Of a stretch of DNA of 10,561 nt, positions 3,026 through 9,644 are shown piece after piece; position 1 is the stretch's first letter, and every line of letters begins with the position of its first letter. Source of the DNA: a virus (Duplodnaviria > Heunggongvirae > Uroviricota > Caudoviricetes); the IMG/VR virus record IMGVR_UViG_2663763339_000007, one strand, 5' to 3'. The notes under the pieces are model-generated. The model saw nothing but the letters and a program-made list of their open reading frames with translations. It had not been told where the DNA came from and made no database searches. The translations under genes and the position numbers were made by a program.

Positions 3026-3625
3026 ATGCGTAAAGTTTGTGCAGCAATTTTGTCCGCAGCCATTTGTCTGGCCGTATCCGGTGCGCCTGCATGGGCGTCT
3101 GAACATCAGTCCACGCTGAGCGCGGGGTATCTTCATGCCTCGACGAACGTCCCCGGCAGCGATGATCTGAACGGGATTAACGTGAAATACCGTTATGAGT
3201 TTACGGACACACTGGGGCTGGTGACGTCATTCAGCTATGCAGGAGACAAGAATCGCCAGCTGACCCGTTACAGCGATACCCGCTGGCATGAAGATTCCGT
3301 TCGTAACCGCTGGTTCAGCGTAATGGCGGGGCCGTCTGTGCGCGTGAATGAATGGTTCAGCGCGTATGCGATGGCGGGTGTAGCTTACAACCGTGTGTCG
3401 ACTTTCTCCGGGGATTATCTTCGCGTAACTGACAACAAGGGGAAAAAGCACGATGTGCTGACCGGAAGTGATGACGGTCGCCACAGCAACACGTCTCTGG
3501 CGTGGGGGGCTGGCGTGCAGTTTAACCCGACCGAATCCGTGGCCATTGATATTGCTTATGAAGGCTCCGGCAGTGGTGACTGGCGCACTGACGGTTTCAT
3601 CGTGGGTGTCGGTTATAAATTCTGA
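3026..3625 (+). CDS. lom: Outer membrane protein Lom (Ail/Lom/PagC/OmpX family beta-barrel), 199 aa
   Basis: ATG at 3026 preceded by GAGAGG (3015-3020). N-terminal signal peptide MRKVCAAILSAAICLAVSGAPAWA. C-terminal aromatic residue (…GVGYKF), typical of outer membrane beta-barrels. Sequence matches my recollection of lambda Lom, and the position between J and stf is as in lambda. Confidence 0.93.
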   Translation: MRKVCAAILSAAICLAVSGAPAWASEHQSTLSAGYLHASTNVPGSDDLNGINVKYRYEFTDTLGLVTSFSYAGDKNRQLTRYSDTRWHEDSVRNRWFSVMAGPSVRVNEWFSAYAMAGVAYNRVSTFSGDYLRVTDNKGKKHDVLTGSDDGRHSNTSLAWGAGVQFNPTESVAIDIAYEGSGSGDWRTDGFIVGVGYKF

Positions 3626-3678: not shown

Positions 3679-3689
3679 GTGGGGTGAAT

Positions 3690-6380
3690 ATGGCAGTAAA
3701 GATTTCAGGTGTACTGAAAGACGGCACAGGAAAACCGGTACAGAACTGCACAATCCAGCTGAAAGCAAAACGTAACAGCACCACGGTGGTGGTGAACACG
3801 CTGGCCTCAGAAAATCCGGATGAAGCCGGGCGTTACAGCATGGACGTTGAGTACGGGCAGTACAGCGTTATTCTGTTGGTGGAGGGATTCCCGCCGTCAC
3901 ATGCCGGGACCATCACCGTGTATGAAGATTCCCGACCCGGTACGCTGAATGATTTTCTCGGTGCCATGACGGAGGATGATGCCCGTCCTGAGGCACTGCG
4001 CCGTTTTGAACTGATGGTGGAAGAGGTGGCGCGTAACGCGTCCGCGGTGGCACAGAACACGGCAGCCGCGAAGAAGTCAGCCAGCGATGCCAGCACATCA
4101 GCCCGTGAGGCGGCAACCCATGCGACTGATGCTGCAGATTCAGCACGTGCAGCCAGCACGTCAGCCGGACAGGCCGCTTCGTCGGCTCAGTCAGCGTCTT
4201 CCAGCGCAGGAACGGCATCAACAAAGGCCACTGAAGCCTCAAAAAGTGCTGCCGCTGCAGAGTCCTCAAAAAGCGTGGCAGCTACCAGTGCCGGTGCGGC
4301 GAAAACGTCAGAAACGAATGCCGCAGCGTCAGAACAATCAGCCGCCACTTCTGCATCCACCGCGACCACGAAAGCGTCAGAAGCTGCCACCTCAGCCCGG
4401 GATGCGGCGGCCTCAAAAGAGGCAGCGAAATCATCAGAAACGAACGCGAAAGCGTCGGAAACCCGTGCAGAATCCTCAAAAACGGCAGCGGCATCGTCCG
4501 CCAGTTCGGCGGCGTCATCGGCATCATCGGCGTCTGCTTCAAAAGATGAGGCGACCAGACAGGCGTCAGCAGCGAAGGGCAGCGCCACGACGGCATCCAC
4601 GAAGGCGACAGAGGCTGCTGGTAGTGCGAAGGCAGCAGCTCAGAGCAAAAGTACGGCGGAATCTGCAGCAACGCGCGCTGAGACAGCGGCAAAACGGGCA
4701 GAGGATATTGCATCCGCCGTGGCGCTTGAGGATGCGAGCACGACGAAAAAGGGGATAGTACAGCTCAGTAGTGCGACTAACAGCACTTCCGAGTCACTGG
4801 CGGCAACACCAAAAGCCGTTAAGGCCGCGTATGACCTGGCTAGCGGGAAATACACCGCACAGGATGCAACGACAGCACAGAAAGGGATAATCCAGCTAAG
4901 CAGCGCGACCAACAGCACGTCTGAAACGCTGGCGGCAACGCCAAAGGCAGTAAAAGCAGCCAATGACAATGCTGAGAAACGTCTGCAGAAAGATCAGAAC
5001 GGTGCGGATATCCCTGGCAAAGACACCTTTACGAAAAATATTGGTGCCTGCCGTGCCTTCGGTGGGTCAGTAAGCACAACAACAGGAAACTGGACGACTG
5101 CACAGTTTATCGAGTGGCTGGATTCTCAGGGAGCATTTAACCATCCATACTGGATGTGCAAGGGTTCCTGGTCTTATGGCAATAATAAAATCATTACTGA
5201 TACTGGCTGCGGTAATATTCATCTCGCCGGAGCTGTCATTGAAGTAATGGGGATAAAGTCAGCGATGACGATCCGCATTACCACTCCGACCACATCCAGC
5301 GGTGGCGGAACAACCAACGCCCAGTTTACCTATATTAATCACGGAACAGATTATTCACCTGGCTGGCGAAGGGACTATAACTCCAGAAATAAGCCAACGG
5401 CATCAGAGATCGGGGCGCTACCGTCAGGTGGAACAGCAGTATCATCAGTTAATCTGGCTTCAAAAGGTCGGGTAGCCGCGCTGACAGACAATACGCAGGG
5501 GGCAGCAGGTCTTGAGTTATACGAGGTGTATAACAACGGATATCCAACAACGTATGGAAATATCATTCACCTGAAAGGGATGACAGCCGTTGGCGAAGGT
5601 GAGTTACTCATCGGCTGGAGTGGTACAAGCGGTGCTCATGCTCCGGCATTTATTCGTTCACGACGGGATACGACCGACGCAAACTGGTCGCCGTGGGCGC
5701 AGCTTTACACCTCGGCTCATCCTCCTGCAGAGTTTTATCCAGTCGGTGCACCAATCCCGTGGCCATCAGATACCGTTCCGTCTGGTTATGTCCTGATGCA
5801 GGGGCAGACTTTTGACAAATCTGCATACCCGAAACTTGCAGCCGCTTATCCGTCAGGCGTGATCCCTGATATGCGTGGCTGGACGATTAAGGGCAAACCT
5901 GCCAGTGGTCGGGCCGTATTGTCTCAGGAACAGGACGGCATTAAATCGCACACCCACAGCGCCAGCGCATCCAGTACGGATTTGGGGACGAAAACCACAT
6001 CGTCGTTTGATTACGGCACTAAATCCACGAATAACATCGGGGCGCATACGCACAGTGTGAGCGGTACAGCCGCAAGTGCCGGAAACCATACTCATAGTGT
6101 CACAGGCGCATCAGCAGTCAGCCAGTGGTCACAAAATGGGTCAGTACATAAGGTAGTGTCTGCGGCCAGTGTGAATACAAGTGCTGCAGGAGCGCACACT
6201 CATAGTGTCAGCGGCACAGCTGCATCTGCAGGTGCTCACGCACATACTGTCGGTATTGGTGCTCATACGCACTCGGTTGCGATTGGCTCACATGGACACA
6301 CCATCACCGTTAACGCTGCTGGTAACGCGGAAAACACCGTCAAAAACATCGCATTTAACTATATTGTGAGGCTTGCATGA
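3690..6380 (+). CDS. stf: Side tail fibre protein Stf, full length (~896 aa from ATG 3690; the ORF track starts at in-frame GTG 3684)
   Basis: ATG 3690 preceded by a G-rich SD (GGGGTG, 3681-3686). N-terminus [26 protein letters not shown]… matches my recollection of lambda Stf. Contains a long Ala/Ser/Thr-rich shaft, two copies of the phage tail fibre repeat, and a C-terminal tip with repeated GAHTHSV / GAHAHTV / GSHGHTI motifs ending …[11 protein letters not shown]. The stop TGA (6378-6380) overlaps the next ATG. Confidence 0.93.
4060..4730 (+). repeat. Ala/Ser/Thr-rich low-complexity coding region of the Stf shaft
   Basis: Translation is dominated by short A/S/T/K/E-containing units (…[48 protein letters not shown]…). 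This explains the many long alternative-frame ORFs in the track over 3833-4969. Coordinates are approximate. Confidence 0.7.
4746..4962 (+). repeat. Tandem duplicated ~44-codon coding repeat within stf (phage tail fibre repeat motif)
   Basis: Peptide [32 protein letters not shown] is followed about 132 nt later by [32 protein letters not shown]. The nucleotide copies at about 4746-4830 and 4878-4962 are clearly related but diverged. Confidence 0.8.
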
Positions 6381-7279
6381 TTACGCTCATTCTTTCTGCA
6401 CCAGTAACCGAAATGGCTGAAGCATTTAAGCGGGTATTTGCAAATGCAGATAATGTGAATATTGTCGGAAAGCCATTTGAAACAATCAGAGAATTTGACT
6501 GCATGGTAAGTGCGGCAAATAGTTTCGGCCTGATGGATGGCGGTGTTGATGCCGCCATTACCACATTCTTCGGTTCTCAGCTACAGGCCCGCGTTCAGAA
6601 TCATATTCTTCGTGAATATCTCGGCGAGCAGCCTGTAGGTTCTGCATTTGTTATTGAAACGGGGCATAATTATCACCCCTGGCTGGTACATGCGCCAACA
6701 ATGCGTGTTCCGTTGACAATTGACGGAACAGACGCTGTATATAACGCAACTTGGGCAGCTCTACTTGCTATCTTTCAGCACAATAAAAACGCAACGACAG
6801 ACAGGAAAATAAAGACGGTGGTATTCCCTGCAATGGGAGCCGGATGTGGTCAGGTGCCGTTTGAAAGCGTTGCCCGGCAGATGAAGCAGGCATGGGATAA
6901 CTTTAATAAAAAAACAGAATCAATTAACTGGGAATACGCACAATCCCGCCAGTCGGCAGTATTTGGCACATATGCATACTGTCCGGGTAATTCTGTTTGC
7001 CGTTATGCGGATACTAAATATATTGGATGCGGCGATTATCGGACGTATTGCTCACGTTCCGGGCAGGTCTGTATTAACCCTGAACATCAGGCTGATGATG
7101 TACTGATACAACATCAGGCTAATAACCGGTTTCGCCCTGGTTCGCATATACACCGGATTAATCCAGAAAATCCTGTAGGTAATGTCATCTCTGGCGCACA
7201 TAGCCACGGAAGTAGCATCGTTATTGGTGCTCACACCCATACGCTCAATAAACAATATTCTGTCTCTGATATTAAGTAG
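6377..7279 (+). CDS. Macro-domain (ADP-ribose binding/processing-like) protein with a Cys-rich linker and a tail-fibre-tip-like HxH C-terminus, 300 aa; inserted between stf and tfa
   Basis: ATG 6377 overlaps the stf stop (ATGA) and is preceded by GAGG (6368-6371). Macro-domain motifs read directly from the translation: [21 protein letters not shown] (cf. the canonical VNAAN…GGGVDGAI), [21 protein letters not shown], and [14 protein letters not shown] (cf. AFPAISTGVYGYP). The C-terminal ~120 aa has five Cys ([32 protein letters not shown]), then GSHIH…[17 protein letters not shown], resembling the stf tip HxH repeats. The ORF is visibly AT-richer than stf. Family assignment is motif-based only. 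Confidence 0.7.
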
Positions 7280-7287
7280 AGGTGAAC

Positions 7288-7863
7288 ATGGATTTCAGAA
7301 TGAGTGAACAACCACGGACCATAACAATTTATAATCTGCTGGCCGGAACTAATGAATTTATTGGTGAAGGTGACGCATACATTCCGCCTCATACAGGTCT
7401 GCCAGCAAACAGTACCGATATTGCACCGCCAGATATTCCGGCTGGTTTCGTGGCTGTTTTCAACAGTGATGAGTCATCGTGGCATCTCGTTGAAGATCAT
7501 CGGGGTAAAACGGTTTATGACGTGGCTTCCGGCGACGCGTTATTTATTTCTGAACTCGGCTCATTACCGGAAAATGTCACCTGGTTATCCCCGGAAGGGG
7601 AGTTTCAGAAGTGGAACGGCACAGCCTGGGTGAAGGATACGGAAGCAGAAAAACTGTTCCGGATCCGGGAGGCGGAAGAAACAAAAAACAGCCTGATGCA
7701 GGTAGCCAGTGAGCATATAGCGCCGCTTCAGGATGCTGTGGATCTGGAGATCGCAACGGAGAAAGAAACCTTGTTGCTGGAAGCCTGGAAAAAGTATCGG
7801 GTGTTGCTGAACCGTGTTGATACATCAACTGCACCGGATATTGAATGGCCAGCCCTACCGTAG
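7288..7863 (+). CDS. tfa: Tail fibre assembly protein Tfa (~191 aa from ATG 7288; the ORF track starts at in-frame GTG 7282)
   Basis: ATG 7288 preceded by GAGG (7279-7282). Translation [79 protein letters not shown]… matches my recollection of lambda Tfa. Confidence 0.92.
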
Positions 7864-7960
7864 GGTAAGATATATAAATTCTATAATTAGAAGTATCTTT
7901 CCATTTAAGGCTAGGAAGGGGGGCTTGGAAAACGTAAGGAATCTCACACCGAGATTATTT

Positions 7961-8551
7961 TTATATATCAGGTGTCTGATTTTTTGCTTTAGCTCTTAAA
8001 ATGGTTTGCCGCGAGGTTTTGAATTCTTGGGCAATGTCACTTATATTTATACCTGACTTAATTTGCTCTAGTACCCTCTGTATTTGTTCATCATTTAACA
8101 CAGGTGGGCGACCAAATCGCTTTCCTGCGCCCCGTGCTCTTAATATCCCTGAATGAGTACGCTCAAGTAAAAGGTCTCGCTCAAATTCAGCGACTGCTGA
8201 AATTACTTGCATCATCATTTTTCCAGGTGGACTGGTCAGGTCAACGCCCCCCAATGCTAAGCAATGCACTTTGATACCTGCTTTGGTCAGTTGTTCCACC
8301 GTTTTACTGATATCCATTGGATTACAACCGAGGCGATCCAGTTTTGTGACAATCAATGCATCACCTCTTTTCAGTCGATCAAGCAACTGGTTAAAACCAG
8401 GACGCTCACTGGTTGCTGCTGAGCCGCTAATTTGTTCTTCAATTATTTGCTGAGATTTGATGTTAAAACCTGCACTTTCGATTTCCCGACGTTGATTTTT
8501 GGTTGTCTTTTCCAGAGTTGATACCCGACAGTAAGCATAAATTCGAGACAT
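7961..8551 (-). CDS. Small serine recombinase (resolvase/invertase family), 196 aa
   Basis: N-terminal catalytic region [20 protein letters not shown] with the serine-nucleophile context YxRVST. Conserved acidic/Arg positions (…[12 protein letters not shown]…, …[12 protein letters not shown]…). A GRPP motif is followed by a C-terminal helix-turn-helix-like segment ([19 protein letters not shown]). The N-terminus differs from the Pin/Gin/Hin consensus as I recall it, so resolvase versus invertase is not assigned. Confidence 0.88.
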
Positions 8552-8576
8552 AGTGAGATCTTCTATACGAAATTGG

Positions 8577-8712
8577 TGTACATATCATAATGCATCTCAG
8601 AAAATAATTTTGATTATTTTTGTACATATTTGTATGTACACGTTCGAAAATAAACGAATGCGTATGCAACCCCGTAATTTTGGTGAGACCCAAAATCGAT
8701 TTTGTGAAAAAT
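8577..8712. promoter_or_regulatory. Cluster of palindromes in the recombinase upstream region: candidate operator and/or recombination (res/crossover) site
   Basis: TGTACATA occurs at 8577-8584 and 8621-8628, with its reverse complement TATGTACA at 8633-8640, giving a perfect 8-bp inverted repeat with a 4-bp spacer at 8621-8640. A perfect 14-bp palindrome CAAAATCGATTTTG lies at 8691-8704, overlapping ATTTTGG(8677-8683)/CCAAAAT(8690-8696). These lie 26-160 bp upstream of the recombinase start codon (8551, minus strand). Confidence 0.35.
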
Positions 8713-8869
8713 GGCCTTAACTCGGTTTGTTTTTCGAGTTCCGGGCGGACTCAAGGAAGAAGAATAGTGTTGCGTGTTATTTTAACCAGATTTCAAGTTG
8801 TTTGGTCGTGGAAAAGTGGAGCAAAATGTTGTTAAAGTGGAAAAATGATAAGAAAGTAAGTTTATTATA

Positions 8870-9103
8870 TTACATTTTACCATTTAAATTTTTGTTGTCT
8901 TTAAGAACTGATATCGCTGTTTGTAATAATTCTTTGTTATCCAGCCATGACTTTTTCTTTATGTTTCCTTCAATGTAATCAAGCAATGTTCTGGTATTGA
9001 TAGGTCTTCCCTGTTTTGCTACTTCCACTACAGCATCCCCTAGGATAATTCTTACTTCAGGAAGCTGCGCAGGGAACCACTTTAGGGTGTCTTTTGATTT
9101 CAT
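8870..9103 (-). CDS. Hypothetical small protein (77 aa from ATG 9103; 88 aa if started at 9136)
   Basis: Open frame in an AT-rich region where stops are frequent. The internal Met at 9103-9101 has an AAGGA SD (reverse complement of 9112-9116) about 8 nt upstream, whereas the ORF-track start at 9136 has no recognisable SD. No recognisable motif in MKSKDTLKWFPAQLPEVRIILGDAVVEVAKQGRPINTRTLLDYIEGNIKKKSWLDNKELLQTAISVLKDNKNLNGKM. Confidence 0.45.
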   Translation of the reverse strand: MKSKDTLKWFPAQLPEVRIILGDAVVEVAKQGRPINTRTLLDYIEGNIKKKSWLDNKELLQTAISVLKDNKNLNGKM

Positions 9104-9603
9104 GAAGATATTCCTTAAAATATTATTGATTTTCATTGCGATATTGTATGTCTGATTCAGGATATGTTGACTTATACATCGGTTTTGTCTGGGTTATTGG
9201 ATATGCCAATCCCTAATTTTATTAGAGCATGACTAAAAATGCTGAATATGATAAGGAGCGAAGTGATTATCAGTATGCTGTTCATATAGCCTCGAATTAG
9301 TAATGTGTTATATATGATATAGTTGACAATTTTTATCCTGGGTGTTCTTAAAGTTCGTAGATAAACATTGTCGTTTCAGGTATACAGGAATGCTAACAGG
9401 TGGCGGCAAAAATCAGGCGGTTTATGGCGCAAGCTGAAGTGTCAACTGCAAACTATCTTATGCAGAGACTCTACACGGATTGGGTTTAAAAGTATACATA
9501 GATAACAGTTTTTATCTGAAGAAGAAAAATATCAAGGTGATATAGCCTATATGCCTATGATGCGGAGGAATGAATGTGATGGGAGTGATGTATCTGAATA
9601 GTT

Positions 9604-9644
9604 GAAAAACCGCAGACACGCCTTATGCAAGAACGTGCTGCGGT
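9604..9644 (-). terminator. Rho-independent terminator downstream of the methyltransferase-like gene (minus strand)
   Basis: On the minus strand, ACCGCAGCACG (stem), a ~13-nt loop, CGTGTCTGCGGT (stem with one bulged base), then a T-run (plus-strand A-run 9604-9608), immediately after the stop codon at 9651-9653. Confidence 0.65.

Follow-up and report, generated by a model that had tools for sequence, protein, structure and literature searches.

A probable relic of a Tn3-family res region in front of the prophage recombinase gene pin, most likely retained as a promoter

Introduction

What do the repeated and palindromic motifs in front of a small serine recombinase gene of an Escherichia coli prophage represent? 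The question is raised by a 10,561-nt stretch of DNA (the window; IMG/VR record IMGVR_UViG_2663763339_000007, Caudoviricetes), which represents the right arm of a lambdoid prophage of E. coli. Positions 8552–8869 form the spacer between the stop codon of ydfK and the start codon of pin, both genes being read leftward, and pin (7961–8551, minus strand) encodes a 196-aa small serine recombinase of the PinQ/PinR type with Pfam Resolvase and HTH_7 domains. The K-12 genes pinQ and pinR are currently treated as encoding Pin-type invertases, and a 2025 paper assigns PinQ and PinR an anti-phage role via inversion in e14 (PMC12529663). A preliminary description of the spacer had pointed to three copies of TGTACATA and to a 14-bp palindrome, and proposed an operator or a recombination site, the latter either a res-type site upstream of its own recombinase gene or a crossover site of the Hin/Gin/Pin type. 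Here we report that the 115 bp which directly abut the pin ATG (8552–8666) are probably the decayed res site and promoter of a Tn3-family resolvase gene, a region that would now most likely act as a promoter only. The res-type proposal is thereby borne out as regards origin, with two of the three TGTACATA copies on half-site positions of the family, but the sites are decayed and have no partner in the window or in a complete related phage.

Results and Discussion

Homology to Tn3-family res regions

When the 318-bp spacer was compared with plasmids by blastn, only its first 82–98 bp found matches, always beside a homolog of the recombinase gene (E = 2e-15 and 7e-9). Alignments of 10, and then of 16, upstream regions revealed family-wide conservation across approximately 115 bp. 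Furthermore, an nhmmer profile built only from 12 non-prophage res regions recovered positions 8553–8649 of the window on the minus strand (E=1.9e-13; the alignment ends at 8649, its envelope at 8664), and had no other significant match in the window, in K-12 Qin, or in the 45.9-kb genome of phage mEp460_ev081. Judged from these alignments, 8552–8666 is homologous to the res/promoter region of Tn3-family resolvase genes.

Pin itself is 70–80% identical to a large plasmid-borne family (1,849 PLSDB records). In Shewanella baltica, Rahnella, Xenorhabdus, Providencia, Vibrio anguillarum, and Serratia, relatives with 70–77% identity adjoin a Tn3-family transposase gene (DDE_Tnp_Tn3), which is either divergent, with a gap of 160 bp, or upstream and co-directional, with a gap of 118 bp. 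This is the standard tnpA–res–tnpR layout of Tn3-family transposons, in which the promoters lie in res, with site III beside tnpR and site I distal (PMC7157771). Two of the relatives are named in plasmid annotations as ISSba14 (Shewanella) and ISYps3 (Yersinia/Klebsiella); their resolvases are 72–75% identical to Pin and their tnpA–tnpR intergenic regions align with 8552–8666 half-site by half-site, although these are complete or nearly complete transposons with strong sites, whereas the window keeps the repeat–tnpR–res end inside a phage genome. In the copy found on an IncK plasmid (NZ_CP029742, with its intact res at 109873–109990), an antitoxin/ParE toxin pair lies upstream of res and IS4321 lies beside the recombinase gene; antitoxin/toxin pairs and IS4321 are usual companions of Tn3-type transposons. 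The distant relatives were drawn from the plasmid collection and from protein look-ups, while a GTDB genome search with the Pin protein alone returned E. coli-type copies only.

In gene sense, the family consensus begins with subsite A (TGNCCGAAACCGRYCGGTTTCGNACA), a 26-bp dyad followed by 14 variable bp, continues with subsite B (TGTCCGAAAGTnAGTGAAATTAATTTCGGACA), a 32-bp dyad followed by TGCATTATAAT, and ends with the direct repeats C1 and C2 (TTCGTACA-N4-TTTCGTACA), approximately 20 nt from the ATG. Each array comprises six half-sites of the form TGT(A/C)CGAAA. A near-invariant TTATAAT is located between site B and C1 in 14 non-prophage sequences, and the corresponding position of the window, the putative ancestral tnpR −10 (8584–8590, minus strand), reads TTATGAT. 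The offsets of the six half-sites from the ATG (−116, −101, −76, −55, −37, and −24) are the same in the window and in true family members.

Half-sites were scored with a 13-nt position weight matrix derived from 72 non-prophage half-sites. The best preserved is C2 (TATACGAAA; 8564–8572, plus strand; −24 from the ATG), with 12.7 bits in a family range of 7.8–17.0. C1 (TGTACATAT; 8577–8585, plus strand) has 6.5 bits (family range 3.4–15.4), and the same variant is found in the IncK plasmid and the Providencia transposon, while K-12-type prophages carry TGTTCATAT. The relic of subsite B (8595–8626, minus strand) conserves the 32-bp geometry, with 9.9 bits for B_left (TGTACAAAA; 8618–8626, minus strand; family range 7.6–16.5) and −1.1 bits for B_right (TCTCAGAAA; 8595–8603, plus strand; family range 11.3–17.0). 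The gene-distal 26-bp relic of subsite A (8641–8666, minus strand), which by position corresponds to res site I, consists of A_right (CGTTCGAAA; 8641–8649, plus strand), with 5.7 bits in a family range of 13.1–18.4, and A_left (CATACGCAT; 8658–8666, minus strand), with 3.1 bits. A 6-bp insertion displacing A_right was considered and ruled out by the gap-free profile alignment with family spacing.

The family array also accounts for the motifs noticed at the outset. The three exact copies of TGTACATA are indeed located at 8577–8584 (plus strand), 8621–8628 (plus), and 8633–8640 (minus), with 0.29 expected and at least three found in only 1 of 200 shuffles; matches with one mismatch are at chance level (9, with 8.0 expected). 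The first copy is half-site C1, the second overlaps B_left, and the third falls in the non-conserved 14-bp spacer between subsites A and B, where it coincides with the predicted −35 of the pinQ/pinR promoter. The orientation of the second is ambiguous by eye because TGTACA is itself palindromic. The dyad formed by the second and third copies is real as sequence (8-bp arms, 4-bp gap); nevertheless, TGTACATA-N4-TATGTACA was rejected as a single binding dyad because its arms belong to different units in the family alignment and its 20 bp match no subsite length. The weak resemblance GTATACATA, reported at 9484–9492, does exist, but at 9492–9500, and such one-mismatch matches occur at chance frequency.

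Decay of the array

Although the register is conserved, the window array does not comprise three subsites of binding quality. The pooled half-sites of the family have a median of 14.8 bits and a 10th percentile of 7.8, those of the window range from −1.1 to 12.7, and three of the six (both A halves and B_right) lie beyond the range of their own site in the family, with two more below the pooled 10th percentile. True A and B sites of the family have dyad sums of 24–36 bits; no dyad of at least 16 bits was found in the complete phage mEp460_ev081, and none of at least 10 in the window. The preliminary description had counted the lack of further copies as evidence against a recombination site, and neither the window nor the complete phage genome contains a second copy of the TGTACATA motif, of the palindrome, or of any half-site dyad.

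Decay is also apparent among the prophages themselves. The K-12 pinQ type scores no more than 3.4 bits at B_left and less than 3 at C1. The few substitutions that 86 prophage copies show within this stretch fall in the TGTACA cores, which vary to TGTGCA, TGTTCA, and TATACA. Since the recognition helix of the protein is nearly invariant across the family, T(T/S)RQTILR, we regard these site changes as decay and not as co-evolution with the protein.

A probable leftover transposon end

Six bp past the stop codon of pin, at 7918–7954 (minus strand), we found a degenerate Tn3-family terminal inverted repeat (TCTCGGTGTGAGATTCCTTACGTTTTCCAAGCCCCCC in gene sense). It aligns with the terminal repeats of the Providencia, Shewanella, and Xenorhabdus elements (TCTTAACGTGGGATATTTTCCGTTTTCCAAGCGGACCCC), including the terminal C/G run, and an exact 12-mer, CGTTTTCCAAGC (7923–7934), is common to those repeats and the relic. 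Because this relic follows pin, 7918–8666 can be read as the repeat–tnpR–res end of a Tn3-family element. The window has this one degenerate repeat, not two, and no similarity to tnpA was detected in it.

A plausible course of events can be put forward. Insertion of a Tn3-family transposon into a non-essential part of a lambdoid phage would have been followed by loss of the transposase, the segment 7918–8666 (terminal repeat relic, recombinase gene, and res relic) being the leftover right end. In intact relatives, the 26-bp dyad A, the 32-bp dyad B, and the direct pair C1/C2, with a TATAAT −10 between B and C, would, by analogy with Tn3/gamma-delta, bind resolvase dimers that recombine two direct res copies at the gene-distal subsite and, by the same analogy, repress the promoter. 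At present the region may serve as promoter and 5′ leader of pin, with TGTACA-16-AATAAT and a start predicted near 8606, and with at most weak residual binding of Pin at C1/C2 and B_left. That a promoter and leader role is the most likely one follows from the register kept without quality, the missing partner site, and two active-site substitutions in the protein (see below); recombination at 8552–8666 appears very unlikely.

Insertion sequences have targeted the transposon relic region. In one viral contig (L055, ~480–545) an IS5 end abuts the relic of subsite A, and beside the IncK plasmid copy IS4321 lies within the terminal repeat (L013, 2314–3318). The homology break in the former locus was considered as a module boundary and discarded, as it is due to the IS5 insertion.

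The recombinase and its active site

Pin is approximately 34% identical to Cin of P7 and 32% to PinL of phi80, and a published comparison puts its identity to PinE at 38% (PMC12529663). Among PDB entries, its distance from Gin (7e-27) is about the same as that from the gamma-delta/Tn3 resolvases (~2e-22). At the Arg position of the DRLG-R motif, Cys is found in all 93 prophage-type loci fetched and in the big prophage protein clusters, while Arg is found in 15/15 transposon/plasmid loci, in 112 of 120 cluster representatives, and also in Gin. Aligned to gamma-delta resolvase, Cys76 of Pin falls on the catalytic R71 of gamma-delta/Tn3 and Lys15 on Q14. In Tn3 resolvase, R71 mutants (A, K) lose recombination and have cleavage rates lowered approximately thousand-fold, and Q14 mutants give no resolution in vivo (PMC2794168). 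The Arg-to-Cys change of prophage-type Pin and the Lys of the window copy sit uneasily with the recombinase activity reported for PinQ (PMC12529663). The dN/dS of pin is 0.39 within the prophage clade and 0.15–0.20 versus the plasmid copy, values that indicate a constraint relaxed, yet present.

A more speculative extension of the transposon-relic reading, which we hold only tentatively, is that lambdoid phages domesticated a Tn3-family resolvase: with the Arg-to-Cys change fixed, the transposase lost, res decayed, and the promoter perhaps rebuilt from res debris, the protein would have been kept (dN/dS ~0.4) for a job other than cointegrate resolution. Candidate tasks are DNA binding, regulation, and the trans-acting anti-phage activity described for PinQ; the last of these would, if domestication did occur, need a mechanism other than classical Pin/Gin inversion.

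The promoter of pin

The predicted sigma-70 promoter of pin (8613–8640, minus strand) consists of a −35 TGTACA (8635–8640), a 16-nt spacer, and a −10 AATAAT (8613–8618), matching the consensus at 9 of 12 positions in our scan; the −10 falls inside subsite B and the −35 in the A–B spacer. Promoter-like sites as such are not in excess in the region (8, with 5.9 in shuffles). These hexamers are also the ones that Shimada et al. (2014) assigned to the peaks of RNA polymerase binding detected by genomic SELEX in the K-12 ynaE–pinR and ydfK–pinQ spacers (PMC3946193). The K-12 pinQ/pinR promoter thus resembles that of the window, with TGTACA-16-AATAAT in the orthologous spacer, but K-12 has lost TGTACA at two further positions that the window variant keeps. 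An operator role for the surviving half-sites is conceivable.

The palindrome and the distal 200 bp

The perfect 14-bp palindrome CAAAATCGATTTTG is located at 8691–8704, as described previously, with ATTTTGG/CCAAAAT flanks (8677–8696). Its proposed membership of the recombinase site did not hold: it lies outside the relic, in the 3′ flank of ydfK, and homology to the plasmid and transposon copies ends near 8650–8666. Of dinucleotide-shuffled versions of the window, 47% contain a perfect palindrome of at least 14 bp; for the 318-bp region by itself, the figure is 3.5%. This one is restricted to prophage copies linked to ydfK, occurring once in the complete phage mEp460_ev081, and we found no support for a function. 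It is probably incidental AT-rich DNA downstream of ydfK and not a part of the res unit.

The segment in which it lies, 8667–8869, is absent from every plasmid or transposon copy compared, has no second copy anywhere tested, and in E. coli shows tight linkage with ydfK and pin (3,328 versus 3,353 places). RNA structure, a terminator, or a known RNA family were considered as explanations and set aside: neither strand folds better than its shuffles do (z −0.4 to −1.9), no terminator emerged from the scan, and a permissive Rfam scan of 7800–10561 gave no match in the spacer. Just downstream of the ydfK stop codon there is a direct repeat, GTGGAAAAGTG (8808–8818) and GTGGAAAAATG (8837–8847), with a spacing of 29 nt.

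Alternative explanations

Could the region still be an active Pin recombination site, either a res or the border of an invertible segment, with its partner elsewhere in the prophage or chromosome? Descent from a genuine res would make this conceivable, many E. coli genomes carry 2–3 copies of the module in different prophages, and PinQ reportedly promotes inversion in vivo, albeit at the e14 pix sites (PMC12529663). Against this stand the lack of any second motif or half-site dyad in the window and the complete phage genome, the lack of a hix/gix/pix-like site, the particularly advanced decay of subsite A, the crossover site by position, and the Cys and Lys of Pin at the R71 and Q14 positions, at which substitutions abolish recombination by Tn3 resolvase (PMC2794168). 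In addition, a published BLAST survey found inversions in e14 only, and none in Qin or Rac (PMC12529663). An active site is thus highly improbable. The operator alternative, in which C2, C1, and B_left form a working operator through which Pin represses its own promoter, with recombination lost and regulation kept, fares somewhat better, but still seems doubtful. All three half-sites score inside the family range of their own site and lie in or just downstream of the predicted promoter, the DNA-recognition helix of Pin is conserved, autoregulation at res is established for Tn3 (PMC7157771), and the pinQ/pinR transcript is inducible, 14-fold upon T2 infection (PMC12529663). However, no subsite offers the two good halves that a dimer would need, the commonest prophage type (K-12 pinQ/pinR) keeps C2 alone, and close prophage variants differ exactly in the TGTACA cores, unlike a conserved operator.

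A third proposal concerns the distal part only, namely that 8667–8869 is a functional RNA or DNA element of ydfK, be it a terminator, a 3′-UTR structure, or a site bound by a protein of the host or of a phage. On the coding strand, the segment immediately follows the ydfK stop codon, and it has a predicted AACUCG...CGAGUU hairpin followed by AUUUUU (8718–8744) as well as a predicted 8-bp AUUUUGG hairpin; of the ~2,770 E. coli records in which it occurs, almost all have it with an identity of at least 95%, and the K-12 ydfK–pinQ spacer was marked as H-NS bound by Shimada et al. (PMC3946193). Yet the folding energies and the terminator and Rfam scans described above speak against it, and the changes in 2H10-type variants do not consistently keep the palindrome. 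Moreover, since prophage copies share ~97% identity across the entire intergenic region, the high conservation of the segment reflects recent common descent. We therefore consider such an element unlikely.

The reading of 8552–8666 as a decayed res, now a promoter, also has points that weigh against it. The promoter hexamers are predicted ones, linked to a peak of polymerase binding observed in vitro. In this transposon subgroup, the putative crossover subsite is assigned by its position, and site A of the family is centred on GT/AC, where Tn3 has AT/TA. How far the relic extends on its left side is uncertain by ~17 bp: the profile alignment reaches no farther than the middle of subsite A, which could be the true edge instead of 8666 because the homology of A_left is weak. 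The 8.1 bits of A_left in the phage 2H10 variant suggest that this half-site is decayed and not absent; a junction at the A centre formed by resolvase-mediated recombination with a pseudo-site is possible. Finally, to judge from its dN/dS, pin is still under some purifying selection, and PinQ has been reported active in vivo on e14 (PMC12529663); therefore the protein, and possibly the upstream sites, may still function beyond what a position weight matrix judges.

Comparison with known recombination systems

The best-known counterpart of the res relic is the res site of Tn3/gamma-delta (Tn1000). In both cases the site lies directly upstream of the resolvase gene with the promoter embedded in it, measures ~105–115 bp, holds six half-sites for three dimers, and has a long middle subsite between shorter ones (32 bp here versus 34). 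The intact relatives share with Tn3/gamma-delta the transposase gene on the other side, and a terminal inverted repeat ending in GGGG is present. The gamma-delta site (TGTCCGAAAT) presumably resembles the half-site TGT(A/C)CGAAA. There are also clear differences. The window array is a relic, with three of six half-sites beyond the family range and with neither transposase nor partner; intact members of the subgroup have a direct and not an inverted repeat as proximal subsite, and their distal dyad has 26 bp and a GT/AC centre, versus 28 bp and a central AT/TA. The recombinase of the window is only distantly related to the gamma-delta/Tn3 resolvases (E ~1e-22).

The Hin/Gin/Cin/PinE systems likewise have a small serine recombinase with a C-terminal helix-turn-helix and a crossover site just upstream of the invertase gene, and the window gene, named pin, lies beside tail-fibre genes. 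Nevertheless, a crossover site of this kind, as the preliminary description had also envisaged, is not supported. No match to the 26-bp TTNTCNNAAACC-NN-GGTTTNNGANAA with up to three mismatches exists anywhere in the window, which has no hix/gix/pix-like site and no inverted partner for any motif; pin converges on the tail-fibre assembly gene tfa with ydfK upstream, leaving no invertible segment; and the protein is just ~34–38% identical to Cin and PinE. The region is a res of Tn3-family type in relic form and not a hix/gix/pix-type site. The e14 pix site reported to be inverted by PinQ (TTCTCCCAAACCAAGG, as quoted in PMC12529663) has no likeness to TGT(A/C)CGAAA, although the recognition helix of Pin is that of the family.

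The motifs are thus explained by descent; no new kind of element is needed, and the practical message is modest. The relic is of a well-known kind, and its interest is moderate, chiefly for the interpretation of PinQ and PinR: a transposon-end origin, a decayed res, and a replaced catalytic Arg across the prophage clade together reframe the function to be expected of these proteins. In the literature searched, we found no paper linking pinQ/pinR to a Tn3-family tnpR or to a res relic.

The prophage setting

The plus strand of the window encodes J (7–2955), lom (3026–3625), the side tail fibre stf (3684–6380), a macro-domain open reading frame (6377–7279), and tfa (7282–7863). On the minus strand, pin and ydfK (annotated at 8870–9103) are followed by ynaM, a small gene for a YnaM/YnfT protein lying between ydfK and the gene of a SAM-dependent methyltransferase (9651–10319). 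In the best-matching genome, appY–ompT–envY adjoins the prophage. The block formed by pin, the spacer, and ydfK lies between tfa and int in the functional phages mEp460, Tritos, Kati, Turner, HannyBb, and 2H10, and the module is present in 2,793 of the 5,426 complete E. coli genomes searched, i.e., about half.

An information-theory scan had predicted a 17-bit cluster of Fur sites with its centre 8 nt into ydfK and ynaE (PMC2189734), which corresponds to ~9095 in the window (ydfK start) and to positions 1631071 and 1432273 in K-12. Being located at the ydfK start codon, outside 8552–8869, this cluster was discarded as an explanation of the spacer.

The 3′ part of tfa is directly repeated with 85% identity (7696–7787 and 10469–10560), bracketing the block of pin, ydfK, ynaM, and the methyltransferase gene; the second copy is a tfaX-like remnant of tfa. 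Partial matches to Rfam IS009, under the gathering score, fall at both repeat copies (7800–7829 and 10399–10561). Between the YnaM-like gene and that of the methyltransferase, the spacer contains a weak match to Rfam CssrB (9505–9642, plus strand; 28.5 bits, gathering score 76, E=0.003). The ybcY-like methyltransferase of the prophage (9651–10319, minus strand) is 53% identical to one encoded beside a recombinase homolog on a 28-kb plasmid of Erwinia amylovora (L019, 3415–4074); the two families recur together, but arranged differently. The macro-domain protein comprises 300 aa, its gene (6377–7279, plus strand) lying between stf and tfa, and in NZ_CP031321 this gene is interrupted by an IS3 element.

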